A stretch of 64,000 bases of DNA. It comes from an archaeon (lineage in GTDB: Archaea > Micrarchaeota > Micrarchaeia > Anstonellales > Bilamarchaeaceae). The DNA lies in NCBI GenBank assembly GCA_020053355.1, contig JAGVNI010000019.1:7707-71706 (forward strand). Reading direction: 5' to 3'. Of this stretch, positions 7,667 to 24,115 are shown in pieces. Under the pieces are notes generated by a model that was not told the DNA's origin, did no database searches, and saw only the letters and a program-made list of their open reading frames with translations. The translations under genes and the position numbers were made by a program. Position 1 is the stretch's first letter. Each line of letters opens with the position of its first letter.

Positions 7667-10600
7667 TCAGATGGCGCCCCCTGCGGCCTCCATTTCCCGC
7701 CTCGCCCTTTCCTCGCAGTATTGCTCGGCACTCCGGGTGCTGGTCACGAAACCATCCCTGGATTCGGTGTACTGGCCGCGGTTGAATTGCTGGAGGGCCT
7801 GTGTTCCGGAGCGGTATACGTCTGCAGGAATTTCTGCCCGGTATTCGGATGATGCCTCAAGCACGGTCCGCGAGCCAGCAACGTAGCCGGCAAACGCCCT
7901 TCCGTCTAAGGTTGGCACCTGTTCCGCTACAGGAAGGGTGTAGTCCACCCGAGGCGTCTCTCCGGATACGGGTCCGCTTCCCCTGCCCAAATCCATGAAT
8001 GCGCGCGAGGTTTGGTCTTGCGGCCCTCCAGCCAGAGTGCCAAGGAAGGTGGTATGGTCGTCCATTCCGGTCGGATTAAACCCGGTGCGGGCGGTATAAT
8101 CGACCTGGCTGGCTGCGAATCGGCCCAGTGCGTAGTCGGTACGGTCCGAAGCGGACGCATCAGGAGGAAGCCTGGCCCGCGCCTCATCCTGTGCAGCAGA
8201 CCAGTCGCGGCTTGTTGTCGCAATGAAGGAAACCCGGTCTGAGGGAGCCCTCTGCTCCTCGCTCTGGCGCCATGCGGCGTCTATGGTAGCGCGTGCCGCC
8301 GGGTCTTCCGGACGTATATCAGGATGCGTGGCGGCATAATCCGCTGCAAAAGCTACTCCAGCCGGGCTGTCAGCAGGCCGGGGATTGAACGCGCCCGTAG
8401 TCATCACGCCCCTGTAAGCCATGTCTGAATCGAATGGCATGTATGTCGTCGGGTTCGAAGATATCTCCCGCGCTACCGTATGCTCGGCCGCATCGAAGCT
8501 TCTTGCGACGCCTCTTGCCCGGTCGAGATAATCTGACGCGTATGCCATTGCGGCAGGCCGGTCCTCAGCAGCGATTGTCGGGTCGCGCATGACGCGTTCC
8601 TGCACGGTGGCGAGGACCGCGCCGTCGCTCATGCCCACAAGCTCGGTCCCCAAGCCAAGCATATGCCTTGCGACGTTCGTTCCTAAAGGCGGGTCGCCGC
8701 CAGCCACGAGTTCAGGGTGCGCGGCCATCGTGGGAGCGACAGAGTCATGAATCCGGGTGTCCACTACCTCGGTTGCGCCAGTCTCCCTGCGCCCCGTGTA
8801 TGCGGCTATTGCCGCATCAGCCACCGAAGTGCCTGATGGCGGAGTGTAGCCTGTGGGAAGGATGCCAATCCGTTGCGCCTCCACCTCAGCAGTTCTACGA
8901 GTATCGGGGTTATCTGAATGCAGGTTTCTTACCACCTGGCGTTCCGCAGCGTCAATGCCATCTATTCTGGGGCGCATCGCAACCTCTATCGCGCTGGCGG
9001 TTCGCGGGTCCTCCGGATTGAATGTCGCCCCACCCCGTTCATATTGCGCACGGACTTCTTCCCGGGCATCGTAATATGCCTGTGCGCGCGGGCTCATATT
9101 TTCTGCGTTCTCTCCTTCCCGGTTGCCGGTCCGAAGGGCAGTCATGAACGCGGTGTCGTATTCCCTTGCTCCCCTGCGCGCTTCTGCCGAATATTCCACT
9201 TCGGTCTGGCCGAAGCTCGTGCCGCCATAAAGCAATCCTGCGGCGCGGGCCACATCACCATCGACACCGGCCTCGGAAAGCCTCCTCTCCAGAGTCTCTC
9301 CGCCTTCACGTCTGGCCGTGCCGCCCTCCTCAAGGGCCCTGGCAAGGTCCGGGTTCCTTTCCCGGAGCTGCGCTCCGACCTCGGTCATCACGGCAGTCTG
9401 GTATGCCTGGTTCGCCTGAACCATGTTGTTAGCAGCCTGATAGAAGCCATCCAGGTGCTCGCGCACGCCGCTTGCGTCAACAGGTGAGCCCCTTGAAGCG
9501 TTTGTGTCGAGCACGATGTTGGTGCCGGCGAGGGATGTCTGGAACCAGGTGCCGCCAGCGCCTTCTACCGGCTGGTCCCGCCGCAGGATGTCCCGGCCGT
9601 TGGCGTCGGTGGCTGAAGTGAATGCGTCGTTCTGGACGGTTATCGTGGTGCCGGCAGTAAGGCCGGTCCGGTTGGCCGGCTCGCCGGTAGGCGTGTATGA
9701 CGCATCGACCACGCGGATGGTGCAGTCGCCGCGCGCATCGCTTTTCGGCGTCCCGTCCGGATTGCGCTCCCCTTCTCCGCTAAGGTGGAGGACGTTCCGG
9801 TCGGTGACATCGACCATGCCGTACTGCTCCATGTAGACGCGCTGGGTGCGCTCGAGGCTGGCGTTCGCCGACTCCATCGTCCGGGCGGTCATCTCGCGCA
9901 TGTTCGCTGCGGTCAACGCCTGGATGCCCTGTATGGAATCCATGGAATGCCCGTCGTTATTAATCAGCTCGCGGACTGCGTTTTCCATCGTTGAAGTAAC
10001 GCCCACCTGCATGCCGGGCTGTCCCGGCTGGCCTGTCGGAATGCCCCGGTCGAACATCGTAATCTCGCCCGCCTGGCTCCGTTGAATGACAATCGTACCG
10101 ACTTCCGTGATGTTCCCCTGCGCATCCCTGCGGACTTCCTGGGTGGTCGGGGCGCGGCCGACATCGACACCGCTATAGTCCGTGATGCCTGCGGCGACGA
10201 CCGTATTGTTGGGACCCAAGCGATAATTGATGCCGACCTGCTCAACGCCTCCCGGATTGACCACGCGTTCGAAACCCGTGGCGACGCCATTCTCAAGGCG
10301 CCAGTTGGTGAGCTGCCTTGAATCGCCGCTGCCGGATGAGACATGGATTGTGACTGTCGACTCTCCGTTCGCGCCGGTGTTCTCCACGGTGGCAACAGCC
10401 CGGGCCCCTGCGGGGAGACCAAGGCCATCAGTGCTGACGTCGACGTAGCGGCTGCCCCTCACGCCCGTCATGGAGCCGTCATCATCCACGCGTGAGCGCC
10501 CTTCCGCAAAGCTGACGCTCGGATTCGAGCACATGGTCCCGTAGCGGTCAGTGAAAAGTTCTGATTCTGCGATGGCCCTTGCGCCGGTCTCCCTCCTGCT

Positions 10601-11842
10601 TCCAGCGACAGCGCTTTCCATCGTATTCGAAAGGCTGCCGAGAGTGGTGGAGAACATGCCGCCGACTGTCGAGAGGAATGATGAATCCCAAAGCGAAGCG
10701 CCAATCCGTCCCAGAGCAAGGCCGAATTCCGTCCCCCAGGAGCCCACCACCTGGCCAGCATCGAAGGCACGTCCTGCGACCGGCCCGGAGCCGGGGCCGA
10801 TGGGCTTGCCTTCCTTGTCCACCCGCCCGCCTAATGCCCTGACATTGGAGGCCTGGACATCCCGCCTGGCCTTGGAGAATGCGCCGGAGATGCCGGGCCT
10901 TTGGCGTCTTCCGCCCCCTAGGGACACGTTTTGGCTGACCTGCGTGGCTTTCCCTGACCCTCCGGCACCGGCTGTGCCCACAAGCACATCCCCAAGGTCG
11001 CGGACCATCGAATATCCGAACCATTTCGCCTCGGTAGCTTCTCCCTTCCTTCTGCCTGTTTCCTTGCCCTCGGAATCCACTTCGGGCTGCATCTCGTTTA
11101 CCGCGCTTGAGACGGACATTATCACGGATTTCAAATCAAGCGAGAAGCCCCTGCCCCTCGCCTGGTACCTCATGTGCTTGCCGACACGCGCCCCGCCGAT
11201 GTTGAAGCCGGCCCACGGGTTCTTCCCTGTGAGGTAAAGCGCCCCTGAGAGCAATGAGAATACAATCAGCAGGGGAAGGCAGAGGGCGGGCGTCGACGCC
11301 ATTCCGGGCGGCGGCGGGCAGTATGAGAGCTGGTCCACGGCGGGCAGGTACCTCGCTTCGCTTAGCAGCGCCGGAGCAGGCTTGCTTCCCGGGCCCACGT
11401 CAATCTCGTCCGCGCTGTCCTTGTCCGTTTCGATAAGGGAGTAATTCAGGCATGCCTTGAAGCCGCATTCGGGCGACGAAGGGCTGCAGAAGGGGCAGTA
11501 GAGCACCTTGAAGGTTATGCAGCCGTTCTTCCATGTGGTGAAATCGAAATGCGCGGAGCCGTTGGAATCCGTATATGTCTTGTATAGCTCCTTGAGCCCG
11601 GTCGAATTGGTCATCTCTATTATCATTATGGAATCGTTTATCGGCTGGCGCGAAACGGGCGCCGTGAGATTCTCGTAATATACGTAGATGTCGATCGTGT
11701 GGGCCGTATCGTCGTTGACTGAGAGAATCCTTGCCTGCGGCTTGCCGGACATCTCCTCGCAGGAGATGCAGTCGGACGCGATGATGGAGGATGCAAGCGC
11801 GAGCAGGACCAGGGCGATGAAGGCAAATCTCATGATAATCAT
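7667..11842 (-). CDS. Giant (~1390 aa) single-pass membrane protein: signal peptide, ~170-aa Cys/N-glyco ectodomain, one TM, ~1150-aa Cys-free A/G/R/D/E/T-rich domain; no recognisable family
   Basis: Long ORF. Real start is ATG 11842 (MIIMRFAFIALVLL...) or 11833, because the ORF portion 11843-12259 overlaps the divergent gene and promoter. TM at LCLPLLIVFSLLSGALYL. No enzymatic motifs recognised. Confidence 0.85.
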   Translation of the reverse strand: MIIMRFAFIALVLLALASSIIASDCISCEEMSGKPQARILSVNDDTAHTIDIYVYYENLTAPVSRQPINDSIMIIEMTNSTGLKELYKTYTDSNGSAHFDFTTWKNGCITFKVLYCPFCSPSSPECGFKACLNYSLIETDKDSADEIDVGPGSKPAPALLSEARYLPAVDQLSYCPPPPGMASTPALCLPLLIVFSLLSGALYLTGKNPWAGFNIGGARVGKHMRYQARGRGFSLDLKSVIMSVSSAVNEMQPEVDSEGKETGRRKGEATEAKWFGYSMVRDLGDVLVGTAGAGGSGKATQVSQNVSLGGGRRQRPGISGAFSKARRDVQASNVRALGGRVDKEGKPIGPGSGPVAGRAFDAGQVVGSWGTEFGLALGRIGASLWDSSFLSTVGGMFSTTLGSLSNTMESAVAGSRRETGARAIAESELFTDRYGTMCSNPSVSFAEGRSRVDDDGSMTGVRGSRYVDVSTDGLGLPAGARAVATVENTGANGESTVTIHVSSGSGDSRQLTNWRLENGVATGFERVVNPGGVEQVGINYRLGPNNTVVAAGITDYSGVDVGRAPTTQEVRRDAQGNITEVGTIVIQRSQAGEITMFDRGIPTGQPGQPGMQVGVTSTMENAVRELINNDGHSMDSIQGIQALTAANMREMTARTMESANASLERTQRVYMEQYGMVDVTDRNVLHLSGEGERNPDGTPKSDARGDCTIRVVDASYTPTGEPANRTGLTAGTTITVQNDAFTSATDANGRDILRRDQPVEGAGGTWFQTSLAGTNIVLDTNASRGSPVDASGVREHLDGFYQAANNMVQANQAYQTAVMTEVGAQLRERNPDLARALEEGGTARREGGETLERRLSEAGVDGDVARAAGLLYGGTSFGQTEVEYSAEARRGAREYDTAFMTALRTGNREGENAENMSPRAQAYYDAREEVRAQYERGGATFNPEDPRTASAIEVAMRPRIDGIDAAERQVVRNLHSDNPDTRRTAEVEAQRIGILPTGYTPPSGTSVADAAIAAYTGRRETGATEVVDTRIHDSVAPTMAAHPELVAGGDPPLGTNVARHMLGLGTELVGMSDGAVLATVQERVMRDPTIAAEDRPAAMAYASDYLDRARGVARSFDAAEHTVAREISSNPTTYMPFDSDMAYRGVMTTGAFNPRPADSPAGVAFAADYAATHPDIRPEDPAARATIDAAWRQSEEQRAPSDRVSFIATTSRDWSAAQDEARARLPPDASASDRTDYALGRFAASQVDYTARTGFNPTGMDDHTTFLGTLAGGPQDQTSRAFMDLGRGSGPVSGETPRVDYTLPVAEQVPTLDGRAFAGYVAGSRTVLEASSEYRAEIPADVYRSGTQALQQFNRGQYTESRDGFVTSTRSAEQYCEERARREMEAAGGAI

Positions 11843-11927
11843 AGTTTTGGTAAGTTTATAAATTTGCCACTCGGCAGGCTTCCGGGAATATCGAAAACAT
11901 TTAAATGCGTGACTTATAATTAGAGGC
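11843..11927. promoter_or_regulatory. Divergent intergenic promoter with two TATA-like boxes
   Basis: tttataaat (11855-11863) lies about 26 nt from ATG 11833 on the minus strand. cgaaaacatttaaat (TATA 11899-11905 with a purine-rich BRE-like stretch) lies about 26 nt upstream of ATG 11928. This implies leaderless transcripts. Confidence 0.6.
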
Positions 11928-13130
11928 ATGCAGCTGCGGCCACTGGCATTATTCCTATTCGCAATCATGCCACTCGCTTTTTCGGCCGCCAGCCCGGTTG
12001 ACCTGACGTTCGCCGTCCCCGTGATGGCGGCCGTCGTCGCGGCGTTCCTCGGAATCGCGAACATGCTCTCGCACTCCATCTCGGACCCGAAATTGGAGGC
12101 ATGGGTGAACACCGAGATGCGCGAATTCTTCGCCGCGGTGGTGCTCATCGTCATCATCACCGGCTCGCTGATAGGAAGCAACGGCGTCGCGAAGGCGCTG
12201 ACAGGATATGACGATTTCACCGGCGCGGCCCAGGGCGTCGTGGACGGGTGGCTCGGCACCTATGACGGCGCATTCGAGTATATAATCAAGGCCGCGGGCA
12301 GGATAAGGGCGGCCGCCACGTATTCCCCGTACCTCAACATACCGATCTGGTATTTCTCGATCAACTATTCCACGAACACGCTGGGCGGCATCGCCATAAT
12401 ACTCGGGCCGCTGAACATGGCCGCGCAGGGGCTTACGAACGCCATCTACCTTTCCGAGGGCCTGCGCATGCTTCTCGTGTTCCTCAAAATCGTGGTTCCG
12501 CACATCCTCCTGCCGATTGCTTTCGTTACGAGGCTGATTCCTTTCTCGAGGAAGCTCGGCAATACCCTTATCGCCCTCTCGATAGCGGGCATCATATTCC
12601 TCCCGCTCTCGGTCATAATGGCCAGCGCGCTAAACGGCACGATAACGATGCCGGTGCCGACGATGGACCTCAGCAGGCTCGACGCGGACCCCTGGGCGAT
12701 GGAGTTCGCCGAGCCGCTTTGCGAAAGCGTGCCTGTCCGGAGCCTGCTGTTCGTGACCGAGCAGATTTTCTCTGCAATCGTATGCCTGCCGCTCCTCCTC
12801 ACCCCGTGGACCGCCGGGCTCTACCAGGCGCCGTGCCGGGAGCCCCTGATGCACCAGGTCGTCTACCCGCTCATCCAGCTGATTTTCCAGATTGTCAGCA
12901 CCGTGCTCCTCCTGATATGGGAGATTGCGTACAGCGCAGGCATGGCCCACACGTATGCCGAGCAGGTTTTCGGGGAGGTCCTGGGGTTCCTCCGCGCGGT
13001 CAACAATCTCGTCGTGGTCGCTTACATTGATTTCATAATGGTCGGGATAATCACTTTGACCGGCGCCAGAAGCCTGTCGAGTGCCCTTGGCGGCGAATGG
13101 TACATGGCGGGGATACAGAGGCTCATATGA
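11928..13130 (+). CDS. Polytopic membrane protein, paralog P1 of a six-member family (unknown family)
   Basis: 400 aa, signal peptide MQLRPLALFLFAIMPLAFSAAS. Blocks: AWVNTEMREFF, RKLGNTLIALSIAGIIFLP, C-terminal ALGGEWYMAGIQRLI. Confidence 0.85.
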   Translation: MQLRPLALFLFAIMPLAFSAASPVDLTFAVPVMAAVVAAFLGIANMLSHSISDPKLEAWVNTEMREFFAAVVLIVIITGSLIGSNGVAKALTGYDDFTGAAQGVVDGWLGTYDGAFEYIIKAAGRIRAAATYSPYLNIPIWYFSINYSTNTLGGIAIILGPLNMAAQGLTNAIYLSEGLRMLLVFLKIVVPHILLPIAFVTRLIPFSRKLGNTLIALSIAGIIFLPLSVIMASALNGTITMPVPTMDLSRLDADPWAMEFAEPLCESVPVRSLLFVTEQIFSAIVCLPLLLTPWTAGLYQAPCREPLMHQVVYPLIQLIFQIVSTVLLLIWEIAYSAGMAHTYAEQVFGEVLGFLRAVNNLVVVAYIDFIMVGIITLTGARSLSSALGGEWYMAGIQRLI

Positions 13131-14125
13131 ACCACTTCAAGGCTTGCTTGTTCATCCTGCTGCTCGCGGCGACAGTGCACTCCAGCTGCGTCTCCGACGC
13201 GACAGACGTCGTGCTGTCCGATCAGGGTTTGCTGATTGGCATGGTGATCGGCTTCACGGCAGTCGTGCTTGCGCTCGCGTACATGATAGGCACGACGCTC
13301 GGGCACACGCATTACGTCGTCTTCGCCAAGGACGAGGCATACCATCTCGGGTTCTCAATCGTCATGCTCTTCGCCTTCAGCGCGGTCCTCATATTCTCAT
13401 GCGACCTTATGAATTACTTCTATCACGGCGTATTCGCGAACCTCGGCCCCCTTCCATCGCAGTGCTACCTGGGCGAGGGGACGGGGATGAACAGCGCCGC
13501 ATCGTGCTACATCAAGCTCGTGAAGAACGACGCCACGAGGCTGTCCAAGAGCTATATACAGAATTACCTGGATTACCTGATGGAATCCACGTTCTCTTTC
13601 AGCCTCGCCATACCGCTCTTGAACTCCTACACGGCCATTCCGGGCGCGTACCGGAGGGTCGTGTCCAACCAGTATGACATCATCCTGAACACGTTCCTGA
13701 TACCCGCGCTCATGAGTCTCAGCATGCAGAAAATCGGTCTTGATTTCATAAACGAGAATGTAATCAAATGGATTCTTCCTTCGGCCTTCGTCCTCCGGTT
13801 CTTCATACCAACACGGCAGATGGGGAACATGCTGATAGCGCTGTCGCTTGGATTGTACGTCATCGTCCCGTTCATGTATGTGTTCAACCTGGCCATGTAT
13901 GACGCGGTCCTCAGCGACTGCAACGCATATGCCCAGGCTGTTTGCGACAGCGTCGTGGACAGTTACAGCTGCTCCAGCTCGCCCGAGATTACGTGCAGCA
14001 ACCCGGACGGGTTCTGGTTCGTCGCGAGGCTTATTCCGCAGGCGATATTCCTGCCGAACCTGACAATCGCGATACTTATAACGTTCCTTAGCGCCGTGCA
14101 CAAGGGACTGAGGGTGGTCGGATGA
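13127..14125 (+). CDS. Polytopic membrane protein, paralog P2
   Basis: Start at ATG 13127 overlaps the P1 stop (ATGA). Signal peptide MNHFKACLFILLLAATVHS. Blocks: VFAKDEAYHLGF, RQMGNMLIALSLGLYVIVP. The C-terminal tail is divergent. Confidence 0.8.
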   Translation: MNHFKACLFILLLAATVHSSCVSDATDVVLSDQGLLIGMVIGFTAVVLALAYMIGTTLGHTHYVVFAKDEAYHLGFSIVMLFAFSAVLIFSCDLMNYFYHGVFANLGPLPSQCYLGEGTGMNSAASCYIKLVKNDATRLSKSYIQNYLDYLMESTFSFSLAIPLLNSYTAIPGAYRRVVSNQYDIILNTFLIPALMSLSMQKIGLDFINENVIKWILPSAFVLRFFIPTRQMGNMLIALSLGLYVIVPFMYVFNLAMYDAVLSDCNAYAQAVCDSVVDSYSCSSSPEITCSNPDGFWFVARLIPQAIFLPNLTIAILITFLSAVHKGLRVVG

Positions 14126-16197
14126 GAAAGGCTTTCCTGTTGTTACTCCTGCTTGCGGCTTTCGTTGCTGCCACGGATACGGTTACACAAACCCAGTTCG
14201 AACAGCAGACCCAGAGCTCACCGCTCGAGATTGCGCGCGACTGGAAGGTCTTGGCCGGCCTGTCCCTCATGCTTTCGGTCATACTTGTCGGAATCGGTTA
14301 CGCGATAGGCGTGGGCCTCGAGATGCCGGAGATAAAGGCATGGGCGAGCAACGAGATGGCCCAGATTTTCGCAAACGCGCTGATAATAATCGTCCTGATA
14401 GCGACCATCGCGTTAATCGACGGGCTCGTCGTTTCGATGGTGATGGGAAGCGGCCTGAACGTCCCGGCCTGCTCGACCGTCGGCCAGAGCTGCCTGCAGA
14501 ATGTGACGGTAATCTACCTGCAGGATTATGTGAGCACGGCCGAATCCGGAGCCAGGGACGTCCTCGTCAACAACATGGATGCCGCGCATGCCGCCAGCAT
14601 AAGGATCGGGCTGTACTGCACGACGGCGTTCCTTCCGCTCTTCTGCCTCCAGGCCGGATTCACAACGACCGTTGCCGGGCAGTACATGCTGGACCAGGAC
14701 ATGTATGCGATACTCTTCGAGTACTACACCGGCCTGCTCTCATCCATGGAGGCGCAAAAGTTCTTCGTGACCGAAATCTGCTTCAAGATGGCTCCGGTCG
14801 TTCTCGCGATAGGCATAGTCGCGCGCGCATTCTTTTTCACGCGGAAAATCGGCGGCCTCCTGATTGCCATAGCGGCCGGATTGATGTTCTTCTTCCCAGG
14901 GATGTACATCTTCGACTGGATAACCCTGGACATGGCCGTGAACGGGGACAAATTGATGAATGCCGACGACCCGTTGTGCCCGGCAGAATGCGGCGTCGCC
15001 GCGCCGCGCGCCTATTATGACGGCGGCTCGCTGACATCGCCCCCGGATGTTTATTTGGCATTCTCGGAAGGGGACGCCGGGGTGGCCGCCGGGATAATCG
15101 ACGGCAGTATAGCGTCAGCCACAGGCTCGAACCCGGACAGCCCTGCCAACGGCAAAACGGTGACGTCATGTTTCTACGGAGCTTATGGAGGCTGCGCCCT
15201 CGATTGCAGGGAGCTTCCGTATCCGGCCTCTTCCGGCAATTGCTCGAATATGGCCGTGGAGACGCTCTGTGCTACGGTTCCTGAGCAGTGCAAGGTGAGG
15301 CGCCTCGTGGACACATCCTCGCCTAAGTTCGACTTGAACGAGTACAACAAGTGCCCGGCGTCGTGCAAGATTGTGCCGCCATTGAAAAGCGACTGCTCCA
15401 CGGGCTCGGAGGCATGCATGGGTTCTCGGTTCGACTGCCGCCTGGCCATGCGCTCGAACCTGGACTGGAGGCCGACCACGGTCGATATAGAAGGCAGCAA
15501 TTACTGGCAATGCGTCTTCGCTGCGGCATGTCCAGCAAGCCTCGATGCCTACCAGAACTGCGTATATGTGATTCCGGACAGCGGCAGGTGCAACGACCTC
15601 TGCGTAGCATGCCCGGCCGAATGCAGGATACGCGACGCGAACCTGGCGGACCTCCCTGCGCAGTGCAAGGACGGCGACGGCAACCTGCTTTCGCCATGCG
15701 CGACCTGCCACACGGCCTATGACAGCTGCACGATAGGCATGACTGACATAACCTCGCTTAATCCGCCTGCGGAATCCTGCGGCTCATGCCCGGCAGTGAA
15801 AAGGATAGTATACTCTACGCTGCCCGAGGACTACGTCACAGGCGGCTGCTCGATAGAAGCATGCCCCAAGGATTACCGGGCGGCCATACCCCGCAACACG
15901 TGCGAGAGCTGCCTGTTCACGGAGGAATCGTACGTCTACAACCCGCCGATAAACACGCAGTGCGGGGACCAGTGCAGCTCGACCGGCAACGTCCCTGCGA
16001 AGAAGCCGGGCGAATACACCAAGATAGGCGGGGACGGCCTGGTGGGCAAGCCTGAAATCGTGAATGTGGCGAAACTCATGGTCCCGGTCTATCTCCTGCC
16101 CCTTTTCAACATAGTCACGACGCTCGTATTCATTAAAGGCCTGTCCGGCATGCTCGGAGGGGACATAGAGATCCCGGGTCTCGCCAAGGTGTTCTGA
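14122..16197 (+). CDS. Polytopic membrane protein, paralog P3, with a ~330-aa Cys-rich ectodomain insertion
   Basis: 691 aa. ATGA overlap with P2. Blocks: AWASNEMAQIF, RKIGGLLIAIAAGLMFFFP, C-terminal MLGGDIEIPGLAKVF. About 32 Cys between the block-B helix and the last TM. Confidence 0.85.
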   Translation: MRKAFLLLLLLAAFVAATDTVTQTQFEQQTQSSPLEIARDWKVLAGLSLMLSVILVGIGYAIGVGLEMPEIKAWASNEMAQIFANALIIIVLIATIALIDGLVVSMVMGSGLNVPACSTVGQSCLQNVTVIYLQDYVSTAESGARDVLVNNMDAAHAASIRIGLYCTTAFLPLFCLQAGFTTTVAGQYMLDQDMYAILFEYYTGLLSSMEAQKFFVTEICFKMAPVVLAIGIVARAFFFTRKIGGLLIAIAAGLMFFFPGMYIFDWITLDMAVNGDKLMNADDPLCPAECGVAAPRAYYDGGSLTSPPDVYLAFSEGDAGVAAGIIDGSIASATGSNPDSPANGKTVTSCFYGAYGGCALDCRELPYPASSGNCSNMAVETLCATVPEQCKVRRLVDTSSPKFDLNEYNKCPASCKIVPPLKSDCSTGSEACMGSRFDCRLAMRSNLDWRPTTVDIEGSNYWQCVFAAACPASLDAYQNCVYVIPDSGRCNDLCVACPAECRIRDANLADLPAQCKDGDGNLLSPCATCHTAYDSCTIGMTDITSLNPPAESCGSCPAVKRIVYSTLPEDYVTGGCSIEACPKDYRAAIPRNTCESCLFTEESYVYNPPINTQCGDQCSSTGNVPAKKPGEYTKIGGDGLVGKPEIVNVAKLMVPVYLLPLFNIVTTLVFIKGLSGMLGGDIEIPGLAKVF

Positions 16198-17180
16198 TGA
16201 AAGCTGCAACCGCCCTGCTATTCCTGATGATGGTGCCGCTCGCGTTCGCGGCATGGCAGACAACGGCGGCTGTGGCCATAGCCACGTCAATCGGGTTGCT
16301 GGGCGCGATATACATACTCGGCATGGGATTCGGAATCAGCGAATTGCAGATGACGGCCAAGGAGGAATTCTTCCAGCTTATCGCGGCGGCGCTGATGATA
16401 GTCTTCCTGGTGGGCGGGGATTCTGCCCTGAATGCCATTTCAACCAACTTCGGGGATAGCGGCTCGGCGACCTTGCAGGAGGCGGCGAGGGCCAGTATCG
16501 ACACCACCCTTACGGGCGTGACCGGCCTGATGACCAGCATAGAGGGCACGGACAAGGCGGCGGCCATTGAAGGCTCGAAGGCCAGCTCCTGCAGCATCCT
16601 GGGGATGGGATACTCGGTGAGCGGATGCGGAAGCTACACCATGCTCGCGACGCCGCTTTCCATGGCGGGAGGGATAACCGGTTTCGCGGTCGGCGAGCTC
16701 TACACCATGAAGCGGCTTATCCAGCTTTCCGAAGGGTTCGCATTCCCGTTCCTGCTTCCCCTAGGCATCGTGCTGAGGACGTTCAAGTTCACAAGGGGGG
16801 CCGGAGGGCTCCTGATAGCGCTCGCAATCTCGCTCCACATATTGCTGCCGATAGGCTTGATATTCAACGACATGCTCGGAGCCACGTTCCTGGACCCCCC
16901 GGGAACGGATAATGACGCGCTCTCGGCACCCTACAAGGCCGTTCCGCAGAGCGTCAGCCTCAGCTGCAACCCCGGGGACACGGGCCCGGACAACGAAAAC
17001 AACGCGGTCGGCGGGTACCATACCCTGCGGACCAATCTGCGGGTGTACCTGTTCACGATGCTCATCCAGGCGACGCTCGGCCCCGTGCTGGCGTTGCTCA
17101 TGATGTCGACAGGCCTAAGGACATTAACATCGCTCGCCGGCGCCGAGGTCGACGTGAGCGCGATATCGAGGTTCGTCTGA
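16197..17180 (+). CDS. Polytopic membrane protein, paralog P4
   Basis: 327 aa. TGATG overlap with P3. Blocks: MTAKEEFFQLI, RGAGGLLIALAISLHILLP, C-terminal LAGAEVDVSAISRFV. Confidence 0.85.
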   Translation: MKAATALLFLMMVPLAFAAWQTTAAVAIATSIGLLGAIYILGMGFGISELQMTAKEEFFQLIAAALMIVFLVGGDSALNAISTNFGDSGSATLQEAARASIDTTLTGVTGLMTSIEGTDKAAAIEGSKASSCSILGMGYSVSGCGSYTMLATPLSMAGGITGFAVGELYTMKRLIQLSEGFAFPFLLPLGIVLRTFKFTRGAGGLLIALAISLHILLPIGLIFNDMLGATFLDPPGTDNDALSAPYKAVPQSVSLSCNPGDTGPDNENNAVGGYHTLRTNLRVYLFTMLIQATLGPVLALLMMSTGLRTLTSLAGAEVDVSAISRFV

Positions 17181-18259
17181 TGGCATACCTATGCGGCCCT
17201 GAATTCGGAGCTTTCTTTTCGGACAGCGTGCTCCCGCTCCTGGTGTACGCCGCCAGCGCGCTCATCGGCCTGATCGGCATCGCGTACATGGCCGGCACCG
17301 CTACCAGCAATGCCAAGCTTACCCTCTGGAGCAAGACCGAGGCAGTCCAGTTCGTCGTATCCACCGTGTCCGTGTTCCTCATAATAACCACCATGAACAC
17401 GTTCTGCGCCATCAAGATCAACGAGATAGCCAGCATTTTCGACATGCCGGCGGCGGCAGGCGACCCGGACATCTACGCCGCGGCAAACGGCTACCTCCTC
17501 GACGCGGCGATATACTCGCACAATGCGCTCACGGTGGTGAGATACCACCTTGAGGCGTACACCACGCTTTCTTTCTTCAACGCGTTCATGTGCGACCTCG
17601 CGACAGGCAGGATTGGCTGGGGCTGCCTGTTCGGGTATTCCGGCGAGAGCCAGCAGCCCTTGGGCGGCTACAGCGTGCAGACCGCGGCGATGAACATATT
17701 CTTCAACGGCGCCATAATAGCGCATTTCATGTCCCTCAACTTCATCTTCATCCTGCTGTTCGTCTACAAGGGCTTCGTGTTCCTGTTCCTCCCCCTGGGG
17801 GTGTTCATGCGCTCCATGCCGTACATGAGGTCTTTCGGCTCCCTACTCGTGGCGCTCGCCATCTCGTTCCTCCTCATCTACCCGTTCCTGCTCGCGGTGA
17901 TGTACCTGATGAGGAGCGTGCTTGTGGATGCGGACACGGGATACACCCCGCTCCCGGTCCCCATGAGCGGGTATGACGAGAGGAGGTACGACGACATGGT
18001 CAACGGGGGCGACATGATAGCGATGAGCACGCTGGGCGAAGAATACGTATGGCACTGCTATTTCAGCGTTGACGGCTGCGGATGGAGCGGGGACTCCAAG
18101 GAGAACCTGCCCGGTGCGATAGGGTTCGCATCCAACGCGTTTGTGGCCGCCGTGTTCTTCCCGAGCGTCGCGCTCCTCGCTACGATAGCGAGCGTCGGCT
18201 ATATCGCGAGGCTCTACGGCGATGAGATAGATTTAAGTAGGATAACACAACTGGTGTAG
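17180..18259 (+). CDS. Polytopic membrane protein, paralog P5
   Basis: 359 aa. TGATG overlap with P4. Blocks: LWSKTEAVQFV, RSFGSLLVALAISFLLIYP, C-terminal LYGDEIDLSRITQLV. Confidence 0.85.
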   Translation: MAYLCGPEFGAFFSDSVLPLLVYAASALIGLIGIAYMAGTATSNAKLTLWSKTEAVQFVVSTVSVFLIITTMNTFCAIKINEIASIFDMPAAAGDPDIYAAANGYLLDAAIYSHNALTVVRYHLEAYTTLSFFNAFMCDLATGRIGWGCLFGYSGESQQPLGGYSVQTAAMNIFFNGAIIAHFMSLNFIFILLFVYKGFVFLFLPLGVFMRSMPYMRSFGSLLVALAISFLLIYPFLLAVMYLMRSVLVDADTGYTPLPVPMSGYDERRYDDMVNGGDMIAMSTLGEEYVWHCYFSVDGCGWSGDSKENLPGAIGFASNAFVAAVFFPSVALLATIASVGYIARLYGDEIDLSRITQLV

Positions 18260-18261
18260 AT

Positions 18262-19284
18262 ATGGCGTTCCTTGCGCTTTCCGTAAGCAGTTTTTTCGGA
18301 GGATGGGCGAACTGGCTCCCACTGTCAATCCTGGCGGTGGCGGCAGCGGTGCTCTTCCACACGGTCCTGCTCATGGTGGCGAGGGCGTTCTCGATTCGGG
18401 AACTTGAAGCGTATGCCGTATCCGAGATACTCCAGGCGGCCGCAACGGCATTCATGGCCATTTTCCTGGTCGCCATGGTCGGAAGCGCGATGGAGATATC
18501 GCAGGGCCTCATCCATGGCGAGGTCAACTGCGGCGGCACGGCCATGCACATAGGGACCAGCGCCAATTCGACGATGGACCAGGCGTACTACGCCATCCGG
18601 TGCAGGCTGCAGACCAGGACCAGCGAGGTCGCCGCCATCCAGGACGGCATCACAAGCTCCGGCATGGTGGGGCTGGAGTTCAATGCGATCAACATGGCGG
18701 CAAGCCTGTTCGGCATCACCGTTTTCAAGGGGGACTGGGTGACCGGGCTTTACCGCTCCACGGAAACGACGAGGATAACCAACAATCTCGCCACAGTGAT
18801 GCTCATCGGGCTCAACGCGCAGTCCTCGCTCCTGGAGTACCTGCGCATCAACATGCTCCACGTGTTCATCCCGGTCGGGATTCTGCTGCGGGGCTTCTAC
18901 ATAACGCGTGGGCCGGGCGCGCTTTTCATCGCCCTTGGCATCGGGATGTATTTCATTTTCCCGATATTCTTCGTCCTCCTCGACCCGGGTTTCGTGGCGA
19001 CGCCGCTCCCGGCGGCGGTGAACACCCAGCAGCAGCAGACCCTGTGCTATCCCACGATGACGAATGCGGTGTCGGTGCTCACCTCGCTCGAGAACTCGGG
19101 CTTCGGGAGCAGCGCCGGGCTGTCTTTCGACAGCCTCAGGAACGACCTTTCGAAATCGTACATAACGCTCATGCTCCACCCGCTCGTGGCATTCTTCCTG
19201 ACGATGGTCTTCGTGAGATACATGATGTCGGTGCTTGGCGGAGACACGTTTGAACTGACAAAAATGGTAAGCAAAGTGATTTGA
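18262..19284 (+). CDS. Polytopic membrane protein, paralog P6
   Basis: 340 aa, 2-nt gap after P5. Blocks: AYAVSEILQAA, RGPGALFIALGIGMYFIFP, C-terminal VLGGDTFELTKMVSKVI. Confidence 0.85.
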   Translation: MAFLALSVSSFFGGWANWLPLSILAVAAAVLFHTVLLMVARAFSIRELEAYAVSEILQAAATAFMAIFLVAMVGSAMEISQGLIHGEVNCGGTAMHIGTSANSTMDQAYYAIRCRLQTRTSEVAAIQDGITSSGMVGLEFNAINMAASLFGITVFKGDWVTGLYRSTETTRITNNLATVMLIGLNAQSSLLEYLRINMLHVFIPVGILLRGFYITRGPGALFIALGIGMYFIFPIFFVLLDPGFVATPLPAAVNTQQQQTLCYPTMTNAVSVLTSLENSGFGSSAGLSFDSLRNDLSKSYITLMLHPLVAFFLTMVFVRYMMSVLGGDTFELTKMVSKVI

Positions 19285-22200
19285 ATGGGAAAAGCTCTGG
19301 CGATATCGGTCGTGTTGCTGGCTATCCTGGCCGCGGGATGCATACAGCCCGTGGTCAAGCTCGGCTGCTGCCTGAAGGAAAACATCAGCGAAGGCTGCGT
19401 GCTCTACAACACCACGGACTTCACGAACAGCAGCTACATAGACAGGACCAACGGCCCGTGCGACAGCAACGACACGGCCTACAACACCACCGGGCACTGC
19501 AACGTCACTATAAACATGGGCGGGTCGGCGGGGGAAAAATCGTTCCTCGTGCCGATATGCACGCAGGACGACATCAGGCCGTGCATAAACCAGAACTGCA
19601 CGACCATGGTGTGCGGCGATTTCGCATACAAGCCGCGTTTCGCCCCGGGATTCCAGACGAGCGGGAACGACACCAGCAACCCGGACTCCAGCGTCGAGGC
19701 ATCCGGGGGCAACATCCCGCCGGACACCGGAGAGGGCGGGGCGGCGGGTTTCTACAAGGCCCAGTGCAGGTTCCTCAAGATGGACGCGAAACTGCGGCAG
19801 ATCATGAAAAGCTCGAAGTCGCAGATAAACGTCTTCAGGATAGGCGTGGGCGGCTCCATGGACGAATTCGACCAGTACAGGTACTACTTCCCCCTTTCGG
19901 ATAGATACTGCAACATAAATCCCGGCTCGGAAGGTGAGGAGCGGGTAGACAGGTATATGAACTACCTGACCAGCTCGAAAACAGATTACAATCCCGAAGC
20001 GGACATCACGACCAACTGCCTCAAGGACGGCGGCGCAAGCTTGTTCGGCAGCCCGAATCCCTTCGGCTTCGGCGAAAGCCCGGCTGCGCGGGCATCGAGC
20101 ATTTCGGTCGCCTTCGGTTACAGCCCGGTAGTGCCTGATGAATCCAACTACAAGTTCGCCCACCAGGCGCGGGAGGACTGGTTTTCGTCCTGGGACAGCG
20201 GCTGGGGGGGCTACTACTATGGCGGCCCGTCCATCCGCCAGGATTCGGTCTTCAAGAGGATTGACGAGGAATACTACAGGCGTGAATTGTCGATTGCGCA
20301 CGCGGCGACCATCTACGGGGAAACGATGGCAAACACCACCCGGGCGCCTTTCGAATGCGACTCGAGAGGCAACGAATGCTACTCTGGAACGTGCAACACG
20401 CAGTTCTACTCAAGGGGAGTCCTCCTGACATATCCGGGACTTACCGGCACCGTGCCGCCCGATGAGGTCGTGGCGGACTGCAACAGGGTCAGCAACGAGA
20501 ACGGGAAGACGATTGTCGTCTGCGCGCCCACAAAATCCGTATCAATCAGCCCTACGCCCGGCGTCCCTCCGACGTTCACATACGCAACCGTCGATGTGAG
20601 GCCGCAGCATTTCGAGGTCGAACTCGACAACAACGACGAATATGATTACTCCAGCCTGACCGAAGAGGAAAACGTGCTTGACCCGTTCTGGGACGGGTTC
20701 AACACCGGGCAGTTGGGTACCAAACTGACCGGGCACACACGCACGATAACCGGCACGGGATATTATACTTATTGGTATTTCACGCAGAAGAGGTACTGCC
20801 AGTCGGATTACGGGACCAACAACGAAACGACCCAGGTCCTCTGCTCCTCCGTCTCTGAGAGCTGGTACAAGCCTCCGGCGGGTGGGGTTGTCTTTTTCGG
20901 AAAGCAGGGCGAGGGCAATGGTGTCGTCTACAACGGAAATAAGATAATAGGATATGCCATCTCATCCCCGTCCGATTTCAAGGACATAAAATTCGTGAAA
21001 AAATGCGGCATCAATGTCAGCAGCGATACGGAGACGGGCGATTTCGTCCGGGTGGAACTGGACAGCATGGACGACCCGGACTGGGCGGCGCTGCAAGCCG
21101 CCTTCAAGCCGTACTTCCAAGAAAGGCTGAAATCCATGACGACCGGCGGTTTCGACGACGGCTGCGGCGATGCGCTCCAGCCCGTCGATGCGGTCCTCTC
21201 GGCGATGCCATGGGTCGTGAATTACCAGAAAGGCATCCGTGACGCGGATTTCCTCTTCTCAGACACTCTGGAGCCGATATCATACCATATGAGTTCCACG
21301 AGCGCGCAGGCCTTGCGGAAAAACAACGTATATACCGAATACATGGAAACCTGGCCCGGGACAAGCAGCTGCGAACTCCGCAGGACGACGCTGTCGTGGT
21401 GGCTGCCCGTCGACCTTAACTTCTATTACGACGTCCTTTTCTCGAGGTACATATACCTCTTCAAGTACACCGACGGCTCGAGCAAGCTCGGCAATTGCGC
21501 GGTAGACGAAAGCGATTACCTCCCCACCGTCAGGACGTACGGCTGGTGCGAGCCCTGCACGACTTCGACCCTTGCATTCCAGAGCATAAGCGCACACGAA
21601 CGCGTGTATATGCCGGCCTACACTGCCAATGTGGAGGGAGCGGGCGGCACTAGTATCGAGAACATCTGCACCGCCCAGTACGACACCAGGTGGGAGGGGT
21701 GGCTCGATTTCACGCATACCGATAATGTTTCATGCATGAATCCGCGCATTACTGACGTGAATGAATACAAGGAATCCATCGGCGGCATCGGCTCCCCGAG
21801 GACGTCCCCGGAAGCCACCATCCTGAAAGAAAGGCTCGGGAATTACATGAAGTCCGGGATAATGCCTGTTTTCGACATGACGGATGCCAGCAACTGGAAC
21901 ATGGCGAACCCGGATGCCGGCACAGGCGGATTCTGGCTGTTCTATGACGAGGCGCCGGCAACTTACCAGCAGTACGATTTCCAGAGGCTCTTCGGGGAGA
22001 TGGGAGCGACGGTGGTCATAGTGAACCACATAAGCGGCGATGCGACCGATGCGCAGATTGAGGATATCATCAACCGGGCTTCGGTAATCCACGAAAGGTG
22101 CTTCGGCTGCCTGACCGCCTTCCATGTGGACGGCCCTGCGAGCAACACGAGCTTCAATGATTCCGTCAATTCTGTGCTTTCGGACACGCGCGCGAACTTC

Positions 22201-23193
22201 GCGGTGGACATGGTGACGTTCGACTACCCCATATCCAGCCACTCGTCGGTCTTTTCTGGCCTGAGCGAGCCGGAGAACCGCAGCGAGGCCATCGCAAACG
22301 ACATCGCCTCTTACGGCCGTGTCGCACTGCAGGCGAAGAGGAAGCCGACCATGGTGGTCGGCCTCAACGTCAGGAGCGACGACGGCTACTGGAATGACGC
22401 CAACTACAAGATATTGTTCGAGAAGATAGTCAGGAAACAGGACGAGATGGTCAAGAACGGCGTTATCGGGGTGATTTATTCGCCGGCCCGCGCCGCCAGC
22501 GGAACCGGCACCGGCATAGTCAGCGTCGATGCGAGCGGCCAGGGGCACAAGAGCGAGAAGTTCTGCGCCTTCCAGTCTGCCATGCAGACGATGTCCACCG
22601 GCGCGCCGGTGGCGCTGTTCTCGAGGGTCAACGCCGTGAACACCACAAACTGCACGAAATGCATGAGCCTGGACAAGGTCGGGACCGGGGTATGCTCGGA
22701 TTACAGCCGCAACGACTTGGGCATCGACCCGAAGGAGTGCGATAACGGGGTCATTTGCACGGTCCCTGAGGGCATGGATTCCGATGAGGCCAAATGCCAG
22801 CAAGGCACCATAGTGGATACGGAAGACAGCGGGTGCACGCTGTGCAACGAAACCGGCAAGATGTACACATGCACGCTCAGGTACACCAACGGCACGGTGG
22901 AGACGATAGGGCCGAGGCCGATGACCGAGGTCAGTTCGGACATGTATCTTGATATAATGGCCGGGATATCGAAGCCGAACAAGTGCTGCCTCAATGCCAC
23001 GAACGACAAGAGGTACACGTACGTAAAGGACGCATACCAGAACTCCATAACCAAGGCGATTGTGTTCTCATCCACAGGGGACCCGAAGATGGAGTGCAAC
23101 CTCGGGGACCCCAGGACCATAAGCGAGCTTGGAAGCTTCTGCGGCATCCAGCTTCCTTTGCGCGACTATGATATCAACTGCACGCTGAGTTGA
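19285..23193 (+). CDS. Giant (1302 aa) Cys-rich, N-glycosylation-sequon-rich lipobox surface protein (P7); no recognisable family
   Basis: Starts directly after the P6 stop. Signal plus lipobox MGKALAISVVLLAILAAGC. About 45 Cys by my count and many NxS/T sequons (NIS, NTT, NSS, NDT, NVT, NCT...). No C-terminal TM. Confidence 0.85.
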   Translation: MGKALAISVVLLAILAAGCIQPVVKLGCCLKENISEGCVLYNTTDFTNSSYIDRTNGPCDSNDTAYNTTGHCNVTINMGGSAGEKSFLVPICTQDDIRPCINQNCTTMVCGDFAYKPRFAPGFQTSGNDTSNPDSSVEASGGNIPPDTGEGGAAGFYKAQCRFLKMDAKLRQIMKSSKSQINVFRIGVGGSMDEFDQYRYYFPLSDRYCNINPGSEGEERVDRYMNYLTSSKTDYNPEADITTNCLKDGGASLFGSPNPFGFGESPAARASSISVAFGYSPVVPDESNYKFAHQAREDWFSSWDSGWGGYYYGGPSIRQDSVFKRIDEEYYRRELSIAHAATIYGETMANTTRAPFECDSRGNECYSGTCNTQFYSRGVLLTYPGLTGTVPPDEVVADCNRVSNENGKTIVVCAPTKSVSISPTPGVPPTFTYATVDVRPQHFEVELDNNDEYDYSSLTEEENVLDPFWDGFNTGQLGTKLTGHTRTITGTGYYTYWYFTQKRYCQSDYGTNNETTQVLCSSVSESWYKPPAGGVVFFGKQGEGNGVVYNGNKIIGYAISSPSDFKDIKFVKKCGINVSSDTETGDFVRVELDSMDDPDWAALQAAFKPYFQERLKSMTTGGFDDGCGDALQPVDAVLSAMPWVVNYQKGIRDADFLFSDTLEPISYHMSSTSAQALRKNNVYTEYMETWPGTSSCELRRTTLSWWLPVDLNFYYDVLFSRYIYLFKYTDGSSKLGNCAVDESDYLPTVRTYGWCEPCTTSTLAFQSISAHERVYMPAYTANVEGAGGTSIENICTAQYDTRWEGWLDFTHTDNVSCMNPRITDVNEYKESIGGIGSPRTSPEATILKERLGNYMKSGIMPVFDMTDASNWNMANPDAGTGGFWLFYDEAPATYQQYDFQRLFGEMGATVVIVNHISGDATDAQIEDIINRASVIHERCFGCLTAFHVDGPASNTSFNDSVNSVLSDTRANFAVDMVTFDYPISSHSSVFSGLSEPENRSEAIANDIASYGRVALQAKRKPTMVVGLNVRSDDGYWNDANYKILFEKIVRKQDEMVKNGVIGVIYSPARAASGTGTGIVSVDASGQGHKSEKFCAFQSAMQTMSTGAPVALFSRVNAVNTTNCTKCMSLDKVGTGVCSDYSRNDLGIDPKECDNGVICTVPEGMDSDEAKCQQGTIVDTEDSGCTLCNETGKMYTCTLRYTNGTVETIGPRPMTEVSSDMYLDIMAGISKPNKCCLNATNDKRYTYVKDAYQNSITKAIVFSSTGDPKMECNLGDPRTISELGSFCGIQLPLRDYDINCTLS

Positions 23194-23200
23194 GGGGCAC

Positions 23201-23542
23201 ATGGGCTTAGGAGACATCTTCAATACGTTTGCCAAAGGGCCGCCGCCTGGTTCCGGCGGGAAGGGCCAGGTCCAGAAATGCCCCAACTGCGGAGAAAAGG
23301 TCAACCTCAGCATGGAACGCTGCCCGAAATGCGGGGTGCGCGTCAAAAGCATGTTCCGGCGCAAGTGCCCCAAATGCCAGACGCTGGTCGAATTGGATGC
23401 GAAAAAATGCACCAAATGCAGGTTCAGCTTCGAAGCCGAGCTCGAAAGGGCTAATAAAACCTTTTATGTATGTCCCATATGCGGGTTTAAGATGGAGGCC
23501 ATGATGACGCAGTGCCCTGCATGCAATACCCGCTTCATGTGA
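23201..23542 (+). CDS. Triple zinc-ribbon protein
   Basis: 113 aa with three CxxC-x(n)-CxxC pairs: CPNC..CPKC, CPKC..CTKC, CPIC..CPAC. 7-nt gap after P7. Confidence 0.75.
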   Translation: MGLGDIFNTFAKGPPPGSGGKGQVQKCPNCGEKVNLSMERCPKCGVRVKSMFRRKCPKCQTLVELDAKKCTKCRFSFEAELERANKTFYVCPICGFKMEAMMTQCPACNTRFM

Positions 23543-23548
23543 GCAAAT

Positions 23549-24115
23549 ATGGCCGAATCGTACAAGCAATCCGAGAAGAAGGAGGCGGCGGATGCCCCGA
23601 AGAGGAAATTCATCCACCTGCTCGACGAGGAGGAGGTAGAGGTGAAGCGCCTCGACTCCGAGGACATCGAGGACTGCGTGAAGGTGATGCGCAAATGCGC
23701 ATTCGACGTGACGGAGGTCGAGGTGGGCAACATCATAGCCTACGGCAAGAGCTTCGGGGCGACGGTGAACCGCATGCTCGTCGGGGTGGGGCTCGCTTGG
23801 CCGGCCAGGCTCGACCTCGAGAGCAAGAAGATAACCAGCGGGGAGGCGAACGCCCTGTACATGGAGGACCCCGCCGTGCTCCTCGCTTATGAAGGCCGGG
23901 GGGTGAGGAGGATACTCCTCAAGGAGCGGGAGAAGGAAGCGGTTGACTCCAAACTCAAGTATACGATAGGATACCTCTATGAGGACATCCCGAAGGGGGA
24001 CATAGCGGGCTACATCACCGAAGCCGGAAGCGCGCTTGAAAAGCTGTACTTGTCCGAGGCCTACGAGTTCTTCAGGACCGAGAAGGGAATCCTCGCTTTC
24101 AAGAAAGTAGTCTGA
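23549..24115 (+). CDS. GNAT-like acetyltransferase-fold protein (tentative)
   Basis: 188 aa. YEGRGVRRILLKERE resembles the R/Q-x-x-G-x-G/A acetyl-CoA loop. 6-nt gap after the zinc-ribbon gene. Confidence 0.45.
   Translation: MAESYKQSEKKEAADAPKRKFIHLLDEEEVEVKRLDSEDIEDCVKVMRKCAFDVTEVEVGNIIAYGKSFGATVNRMLVGVGLAWPARLDLESKKITSGEANALYMEDPAVLLAYEGRGVRRILLKEREKEAVDSKLKYTIGYLYEDIPKGDIAGYITEAGSALEKLYLSEAYEFFRTEKGILAFKKVV

Follow-up and report, generated by a model that had tools for sequence, protein, structure and literature searches.

An ancient eight-gene chromosomal module of Micrarchaeota: strong candidate for a cell-envelope apparatus not yet described

Introduction

What kind of apparatus is encoded by a divergent locus of hypothetical membrane and surface proteins in the genome of a small-genome archaeon? 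The locus lies in a 64,000-nt stretch of contig JAGVNI010000019.1 (the whole of this stretch is called the window, and all coordinates are positions therein). An earlier note on this DNA had proposed that it specifies an envelope-spanning assembly made of a cytoplasm-facing giant protein, six paralogous membrane proteins (P1-P6) and a large ectoprotein (P7). The host was rightly taken for a small-genome archaeon, as the taxonomy of the relatives places it in the DPANN phylum Micrarchaeota. Much of archaeal diversity is accounted for by DPANN archaea, yet the molecular make-up of their envelopes and of their exchange with other cells is almost unknown; the module described here fills about 16 kb of genomes of roughly 1-1.5 Mb.

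Our analysis revealed that eight genes, those of the giant, P1-P6 and P7, form the core of the locus, an ancient chromosomal envelope module that is passed on vertically and is specific to Micrarchaeota. Standing far from known systems, it makes a strong candidate for an apparatus of the cell envelope that has not been described before. For seven of the eight core proteins no curated family was found (Pfam, NCBIfam and PDB being among the sources consulted). No earlier description of the cluster was found in the searchable literature, where absence is no proof.

Results

Layout of the locus

An open reading frame (ORF) map of the window returned every ORF at the position given in the earlier note, and bore out the 85-bp divergent spacer and the 11-nt spacing between the giant and the PadR gene. 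The genes of the locus and its control region are as follows.

7335-7655, minus strand: PadR regulator, which starts 11 nt past the stop of the giant
7667-11842, minus strand: giant, 1391 aa from ATG
11843-11927, no strand: intergenic control region, 85 bp
11928-13130, plus strand: P1, 400 aa; one of the pentaspan paralogue family, carrying two additional hydrophobic helices
13097-14125, plus strand: P2, 342 aa; family member without the C-terminal GG[DE] tail
14122-16197, plus strand: P3, 691 aa; family member with an extracellular insert of ~380 aa between transmembrane helices (TM) 4 and 5
16197-17180, plus strand: P4, 327 aa; minimal family member
17180-18259, plus strand: P5, 359 aa; family member
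18262-19284, plus strand: P6, 340 aa; family member
19285-23193, plus strand: P7, 1302 aa; lipobox-anchored ectoprotein with many disulphides and sequons
23201-23542, plus strand: triple zinc-ribbon protein, 113 aa, cytoplasmic
23549-24115, plus strand: 188-aa protein, cytoplasmic, highly conserved

The nine plus-strand genes span 11928-24115, and their junctions are overlaps of 4, 1 and 1 nt or gaps of 2, 0, 7 and 6 nt. P1 and P2 overlap by 34 nt if P2 starts at 13097, and by 4 nt (ATGA) if the conserved Met11 start is used (13127, P2 = 332 aa). P1-P6 are probably translationally coupled. On the minus strand, the ORF of the giant extends upstream to a GTG at 12259; the N-termini of its orthologues align to the ATG instead, and its reading frame is backed by the periodicity of GC content at third codon positions. 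A 308-aa antisense ORF at 23207-24133 (minus strand) was rejected as a gene and regarded as a high-GC artefact, since the relatives call the plus-strand genes and its codon-position GC of 0.76/0.39/0.52 is the mirror image of that of a coding frame, as an antisense strand would show.

Conservation of the module in Micrarchaeota

Profile searches with P1-P6 recovered 143 proteins, all of them annotated as hypothetical; nearly all the named ones belong to Candidatus Micrarchaeota or Bilamarchaeum. The search with P7 returned 77 full-length relatives of the same taxonomy, which carry no Pfam domains. When 1.8 billion cluster representatives were searched with hmmsearch, 2967 family members were detected at E<=1e-3, and the subset that was looked up again pointed to Micrarchaeota / Anstonellales. 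A homologue search with the divergent paralogue from locus L053 yielded 7 relatives and did not widen the taxonomic range.

A scan of one genome per GTDB species identified 50 loci, which are labelled Micrarchaeota, Micrarchaeia or 'uncultured archaeon' with one exception. The scan relied on P1-specific peptide patterns. The exception, L014 (JAQTOF010000011.1), is a fully syntenic locus in a metagenome-assembled genome (MAG) that was deposited as 'Candidatus (I)ainarchaeum sp.', of the sister phylum Iainarchaeota; the bin may be a mislabelled one from Micrarchaeota, or else the locus hints at a module that reaches outside the phylum.

Gene set and synteny are strongly conserved, which is the opposite of what the note had named as fatal to its proposal. 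Classification of the ORFs showed the layout ScpB <- AAA_18 <- PadR <- giant / P1 -> P2 -> P3 -> P4 -> P5 -> P6 -> P7 in about 45 species-level genomes. Hidden Markov models (HMMs) for each single paralogue assigned one orthologue each of P1-P6, in fixed order, even in the most divergent loci, which implied that the six-fold duplication is older than the radiation sampled here. P1-P6 are therefore an ancient set, kept as one of each and in a fixed order. The three-part architecture of cytoplasm-facing giant, six membrane paralogues and large ectoprotein, as first proposed, is likewise kept even in the most divergent lineage.

One deep-branching carrier lineage corresponds to the 'LFWA-III related' Micrarchaeota group (PMC8561730). 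Its genes are all co-directional, and the three component types and six family members are retained. The counterpart of the giant has 661 aa, with a signal peptide, an ectodomain, a TM helix and a tail, and its TM and juxtamembrane part matches the profile of the giant; the counterpart of P7 has 570 aa, a lipobox 'GCIQ' and 21 Cys, and matches the barrel segment of P7. In another locus, that of the Micrarchaeia MAG L050 (12110-16252 and 19564-20328), the P3 orthologue is double its normal length, at 1380 aa, and P6 is not followed by a gene of the size of P7; P3 may have taken over the ectodomain function in this genome.

Two MAGs hold a second copy, at an unrelated chromosomal site, that consists of the giant and P1-P6-P7 only and lacks PadR, ScpB, AAA_18 and the two small downstream genes. 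This limited content of the second copies defines the eight-gene core. In terms of P1, the duplicated copies show ~45% identity to the window. The loci concerned are L006/L028 in one MAG and L010/L034/L057 in the other, and their copies are complete but diverged. The view of the gene set as one unit thus stood for the giant and P1-P7, whereas PadR, the zinc-ribbon gene, the 188-aa gene and a small lipobox gene beside PadR fall outside the duplicable core.

These data bear on the most sceptical explanation, namely that the genes form no single system and are neighbours only through a general conservation of gene order in Micrarchaeota. The flanking ScpB, AAA_18, PP-loop, Lon_C, ELP3 and HerA genes are indeed syntenic in relatives too. 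We nevertheless hold this explanation to be very improbable, given that the eight genes are relocated and duplicated together, leaving their flanks behind, that the three component types occur together, in rearranged form, in the most divergent lineage, and that the gene junctions overlap. A mobile or viral origin of the locus was also rejected: no P1 relatives were found in IMG/VR viral contigs, there were no PHROG matches beyond zinc ribbons, and the chromosomal context is conserved.

The P1-P6 paralogues and their comparison with known membrane systems

The proposal that P1-P6 are paralogous polytopic membrane proteins was confirmed. Pairwise BLAST gave E values from 1e-3 to 7e-12, five positions are invariant (E63, R202, R208, G211 and P226 in P1 numbering), and hydropathy revealed five to seven hydrophobic helices in each protein. 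No match was obtained for P1-P6 against Pfam, NCBIfam, PADLOC or PHROGs, a Pfam scan of 39 family members gave no recurring significant family, and PDB sequence-profile searches with P1 and with the whole family were empty or at chance level.

An AlphaFold2 (AF2) model of P1, built from 71 sequences, was confident, with a predicted local distance difference test (pLDDT) of 84 and a predicted template modelling score (pTM) of 0.71. The model is all-helical save for one beta-hairpin, and its long helices run on beyond the membrane. In the predicted topology, a signal peptide and an outside N-terminus are followed by TM1, a short cytoplasmic loop with the invariant Glu, and TM2; then come an extracellular helical hairpin and beta-hairpin, TM3, a cytoplasmic RxxxxxRxxG loop and TM4; and finally a variable extracellular Cys-containing loop, TM5 and a cytoplasmic tail ending in LGG[DE]-x-[DE/Y]... 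Hydropathy, positive-inside loops and the AF2 secondary structure agree on this predicted N-out/C-in orientation. The strongest conservation of the family lies on the cytoplasmic face, and the TM cores have no conserved polar residues, which favours a scaffold over an ion-coupled transporter. In P3, the loop between TM4 and TM5 (~380 aa) holds 37 Cys, and CPxxC-type motifs are repeated in this protein.

A Foldseek search of the P1 model against the PDB gave nothing below E 1e-3, and no match below this value was found in BFVD either. The best PDB matches were human TTYH1-3, over their full length (E 7e-3 to 0.18, TM-score about 0.18, best probability 0.75, ~400 aligned columns). In TTYH proteins TM2/3/5 extend outward into a disulphide-stabilised ectodomain, and lipid transfer has been proposed for them (PMC8361169, PMC12328215). 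The P family as predicted here resembles TTYH/prominin in several respects: five TM helices in N-out/C-in orientation, which run on into a helical domain outside the membrane; Cys and sequons on the extracellular side; and an acidic residue that is conserved at a TM boundary. On the other hand, no sequence, Pfam Tweety or PDB-sequence similarity connects the two and the fold match is statistically weak. Unlike the eukaryotic TTYH proteins, moreover, the family is archaeal, comes as six obligatory paralogues and has its own RxxxxxRxxG loop and C-terminal GG[DE], and P1 has two extra helices. On the evidence of the model, the TTYH likeness of P1 may serve as a lead and should not be taken for membership.

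This likeness is one of the points that would fit an uptake or transfer conduit. P1-P6 would then be a hetero-hexameric channel or a platform that handles lipids, on the pattern of Mce1A-F and of TTYH-like hydrophobic cavities. Lipids, glycolipids or glycans caught by P7 would pass through the membrane or be inserted into it, driven by gradients or by a partner whose gene lies elsewhere. Mce1A-F are six paralogous membrane-anchored proteins encoded in one operon in fixed order, one of each, with the ATPase encoded elsewhere and with lipoprotein or accessory subunits alongside. The analogy concerns gene logic only: the module has no MCE domain (PF02470) or YrbE-like permease by Pfam and NCBIfam, and P1-P6 are polytopic whereas the Mce subunits are single-pass; a hetero-hexamer is known for Mce and would have to be assumed here. 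DPANN archaea are generally auxotrophic, which counts for a conduit, as do the six fixed one-of-each paralogues, the TTYH1-3 matches with their shared five-TM N-out/C-in plan, the carbohydrate-enzyme fold of P7 described below, and the cytoplasmic motifs and C-terminal tail that could dock a partner. Against it stand the lack of significance of the TTYH match (best E 7e-3, TM-score 0.18), the absence of Tweety or MCE matches in Pfam, TM cores devoid of conserved polar residues, and a module without ATPase or permease. We rank a conduit only slightly behind the organiser or tether described below, as a live rival that is possible rather than probable.

VirB6 proteins are polytopic as well, with a periplasmic N-terminus and a cytoplasmic C-terminus, and this similar, generic topology raises the question of whether P1-P6 might be VirB6/TrbL-like channel subunits of a degenerate or novel type IV secretion system (T4SS), of a conjugation system or of a Ced-like DNA transfer system. 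Both families share polytopic membrane parts, an extracytoplasmic loop and a cytoplasmic tail. A phage model annotated as TrbL ranked 35th in the BFVD search, with the highest TM-scores of the list (0.24-0.26), and a HerA-type ATPase is encoded 6 kb downstream. However, that BFVD match has an E value of 1.1, no VirB6/TrwI chain is among the 50 best PDB fold matches listed for P1, and a Pfam match to TrbL/VirB6 (PF04610) was obtained for none of the 39 family members (hmmscan E<=1, the six window paralogues included). Six paralogues stand here in place of one gene. As had been claimed for VirB4, VirD4, ABC and Sec from reading the proteins, Pfam and NCBIfam recognised no VirB4 or VirD4 in the module and no ABC or Sec family among its proteins; a relaxase or integrase was not found either. 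Finally, the locus lacks a mobile-element context: in every genome it is found at a conserved chromosomal site flanked by housekeeping genes, and it is absent from viral contigs. The T4SS explanation is close to refuted. For type IV pili and archaella, no T2SSE or T2SSF match was found in the locus, class III signal peptides not having been scanned with a dedicated tool.

P7, a lipobox-anchored protein with a glycoside hydrolase fold

Hydropathy of P7 showed one lipobox helix, at the N-terminus. The protein contains 45 Cys and 21 sequons; the lipobox residues G18-C19 and about 40 of the Cys are invariant, in line with its initial description as a Cys-rich, sequon-rich lipobox protein. The invariant Cys include vicinal pairs near both ends, C28-C29 (19366-19371) and C1234-C1235 (22984-22989), in the contexts 'K.GCCL / KP.KCCL'. 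Vicinal disulphides and metal sites are the candidate options for the chemistry of these pairs and of the CPxxC motifs of P3.

Neither Pfam nor NCBIfam assigned P7 to a glycoside hydrolase (GH) family, Pfam gave no GH match for 7 orthologues, and nothing was returned from the PDB profile search. An AF2 model of residues 103-1302 reached a pLDDT of 86 and a pTM of 0.85, and Foldseek found 93 PDB matches below 1e-3, with a probability of 1.0. The top matches were GH2 beta-glucuronidases/galacturonidases (E 1.6e-6, ~600 columns), followed by GH5, GH10, GH51 and GH53, at identities of 8-14%. The model comprises beta-sandwich domains, a clan GH-A (beta/alpha)8 barrel (about residues 840-1117) and Cys-rich ends. 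The claim that the locus has no recognisable family members holds for P1-P6 and the giant, none of which any profile or fold match places in a characterised machine, and has to be given up for P7 at the level of the fold.

P7 shares with the GH2 enzymes the barrel preceded by beta-sandwiches. Clan GH-A enzymes carry an acid/base Glu after strand 4 and a nucleophile Glu after strand 7, whereas a 44-sequence alignment of P7 showed no Glu conserved in the barrel (~840-1117), the sole positions there with acidic residues in at least 90% of the sequences being D864 and D975. The canonical catalytic Glu pair thus appears to be missing, as judged from the alignment. The lipobox anchor, the about 40 invariant Cys, the large extra Cys-rich N- and C-terminal regions and the lack of a GH profile match further set P7 apart from clan GH-A.

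Identities of 35-50% for P7 and 45-55% for P1 indicate that the two proteins evolve at about equal rates, as expected for a housekeeping protein and not for a host-specific adhesin. This result is relevant to the suggestion, already made in the earlier note, of a cell-cell contact apparatus. P7 would recognise glycans of a host or other partner cell, the P1-P6 hexad would form the membrane base, and the giant tail would organise the cytoplasmic side. Such a role would suit a large ectoprotein with a glycan-type fold, a giant whose cytoplasmic tail is hypervariable, and the restriction of the locus to a DPANN phylum, the cultured members of which live as ectosymbionts (PMC11329633, PMC8975820). 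But P7 is not hypervariable, unlike typical host-range determinants, and for the carrier lineages (Anstonellales / 'LFWA-III' group) a free-living lifestyle has been suggested (PMC8561730), to the detriment of the contact part of the original proposal. In addition, in the one Micrarchaeota co-culture studied by cryo-electron tomography (cryo-ET), intercellular nanotubes came from the host and not from the symbiont (PMC11329633). We regard a contact apparatus as unlikely, though as a live rival ranked just behind the conduit.

P7 was also considered as the Micrarchaeota surface-layer (S-layer) protein. Like SlaB of Sulfolobales and SLP_Mh (PF05123), it is a large, glycosylated, membrane-anchored archaeal envelope protein by prediction. 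It differs from them in that it matches neither PF05123 nor another S-layer domain, is Cys-rich and shows no detectable SlaB-like coiled-coil stalk, whereas SLP_Mh is almost without sulphur-containing residues (bioRxiv 10.1101/2021.04.28.441871). The missing PF05123 match, together with the contrast between Cys-rich P7 and Cys-poor SLP_Mh, led us to reject this assignment.

The giant protein

Hydropathy analysis of the giant supported a signal peptide, a Cys-bearing, beta-rich ectodomain of ~160 aa, one TM helix (186-204) and a long inner part. The single TM helix and the Cys ectodomain had been correctly read at the outset; the inner part is Cys-poor, with C438, C707 and C1376, and not Cys-free as stated. 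Conservation is concentrated in residues ~24-235, that is, in the ectodomain Cys, the TM helix and a juxtamembrane motif, YLTG[KR]NP[WF]AGFNIGG.R.G.H.RYQARGRG, and the invariant residues are C25, C28, C116, C126, C131, P185, C188, G206, N208, P209 and F213. Orthologues align over residues ~1-270/400 only and range in length between 796 and 1566 aa. The inner part does measure ~1150 aa, yet it is a hypervariable tail of low hydrophobicity and no conserved domain: 74% of its residues are A/G/S/T/P/D/E/N/Q/R, 0.9% are K and about 24% are hydrophobic. This composition, rich in A/G/R/T/D/E and poor in K, suggests that the tail is largely disordered. A Pfam search with 32 giant N-termini gave weak, sub-threshold Ig-like hints for the ectodomain, and the comparison of the N-terminus with PDB sequence profiles was empty or at chance level.

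Control region and PadR

Two BRE/TATA-like (B recognition element/TATA) boxes are present back to back in the 85-bp spacer. GTAAGTTTATAAATTT adjoins the start of the giant, and GAAAACATTTAAATG lies ~22 nt before the ATG of P1. Among the corresponding spacers of ~30 related genomes, which are otherwise diverged around the motifs, many but not every one have both of them at equal relative positions. They were read as BRE/TATA elements because they match what is known of archaeal promoters, and the spacer likely contains two back-to-back promoters that give rise to short-leader or leaderless transcripts. The PadR protein matches Pfam PF03551 with 49.2 bits against a cutoff of 27, and its orthologues are annotated likewise. 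Its gene runs in the same direction as that of the giant and is kept at the primary locus; the second copies lack it. PadR is probably the regulator of the divergent promoters, for which it is the candidate at hand.

Proposed function of the module

We tentatively favour a housekeeping envelope organiser or tether, in which a hetero-oligomeric membrane platform would present a glycan-binding, lectin-like P7; we regard this as possible rather than probable. According to this model, P1-P6 would co-assemble 1:1:1:1:1:1 into the platform, and P7 would dock on its extracellular stalks and Cys-rich loops and act as a glycan-binding, lectin-like module instead of a hydrolase. The giant would join through its conserved membrane-proximal part, leaving its long disordered tail to hang into the cytoplasm, and PadR would probably control both back-to-back promoters. 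The assembly would link the membrane to a glycosylated surface layer or glycocalyx without an ATPase of its own, and would be distinct from machines for secretion, pili or conjugation. The idea of an envelope-spanning assembly accordingly keeps the inferential standing that it had in the earlier note.

Support for the organiser or tether comes from the P7 rate, which is no faster than that of P1, from the TM cores without transport-type residues, from the perhaps free-living lifestyle of the carriers and from the S-layer, whose protein in Micrarchaeota is glycosylated and has no known membrane anchor (bioRxiv 10.1101/2021.04.28.441871). Several points weigh against it. Interaction of the proteins and expression of the genes are presumed. 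The lack of catalytic residues in P7 was read from an alignment and not from a structural superposition, and P7 might still be an enzyme. Six kept paralogues with roughly 32 TM helices seem elaborate for a mere tether, and the conserved cytoplasmic motifs and C-terminal tails could equally well dock an energising partner encoded elsewhere. Furthermore, the P1-pattern scan did not establish carriage of the module by the cultured S-layer-bearing Micrarchaeota (A_DKE, Mia14, ARM-1).

A bolder and quite improbable proposal is that P1-P6 represent the first prokaryotic TTYH/prominin-type pentaspan architecture, and that an obligate hetero-hexamer, a lectin-like GH2-fold lipoprotein and a giant disordered tether together constitute a new class of envelope machine for the acquisition or exchange of lipids and glycoconjugates or for the shaping of membrane contacts. 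If true, it would provide the long-sought molecular basis by which Micrarchaeota, as DPANN archaea, obtain membrane components or connect to other cells.

The module would also be a rare instance of a reduced archaeal genome that keeps an ancient set of paralogues in the style of a hetero-hexamer. Its eight candidate proteins, their HMMs and confident models for two of them should aid work on the S-layer anchor, on sub-S-layer densities in cryo-ET and on the handling of external glycans and lipids.

Small genes and neighbourhood

The triple zinc-ribbon protein, correctly named from the outset, matches Pfam DZR (4e-11). PADLOC (anti-phage defence) and PHROGs (phage) scans of the module region gave generic zinc-ribbon matches only. 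Its gene and that of the 188-aa protein follow P7 in relatives, lie upstream of P1 in one genome (the zinc-ribbon gene, L048) and are missing from the second copies. The 188-aa protein, whose orthologues share 61-85% identity, had been called GNAT-like. A motif-A-like string, YEGRGIRRILL, agrees with this, whereas the window protein has no Acetyltransf_1 match and PF00583 appeared in two of four orthologues at a sub-threshold E of 0.043; no match was found in the PDB. It is possibly GNAT-like, to judge from its sequence.

Three further genes lie beyond PadR.

6470-7276, minus strand: 268-aa gene with a weak lipobox (GIGC), between PadR and AAA_18, without a family match
5892-6473, minus strand: AAA_18 P-loop protein (Fap7/adenylate-kinase-like)
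5370-5882, minus strand: ScpB gene

The 268-aa gene had been counted as part of the system. A counterpart exists only in the closest relative (L004), and the gene looks like a recent insertion outside the system. That the locus contains no Walker-type ATPase is true within its coordinates, the AAA_18 protein lying just outside them. The AAA_18 and ScpB genes are tightly linked to, and co-directional with, PadR and the giant in nearly all primary loci, which may reflect co-transcription with chromosome-segregation genes or mere conserved gene order.

On the other side, positions 24130-31569 of the window encode a PP-loop ATPase, a membrane Lon_C protease, ELP3, and an unannotated gene of ~269 aa beside a HerA (DUF87) ATPase. 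This run is syntenic in distant relatives too (L055, L056), and L055 has an extra 1189-aa NosD/beta-helix surface protein. At 42100-42223 (plus strand), Rfam detected a tRNA of 124 nt (48 bits), a length too great for an uninterrupted tRNA, so an intron is presumed; ARAGORN reported no tRNA in the window. A TnpB / IS605 OrfB-type gene at 1827-3002 (minus strand), with OrfB_IS605 and Cas12f1-like TNB domains, is situated a few kb from the locus, and a gene with the same domains occupies the corresponding neighbourhood in the 1.57-Mb chromosome of a distant relative (L001, 2462-3625, plus strand).

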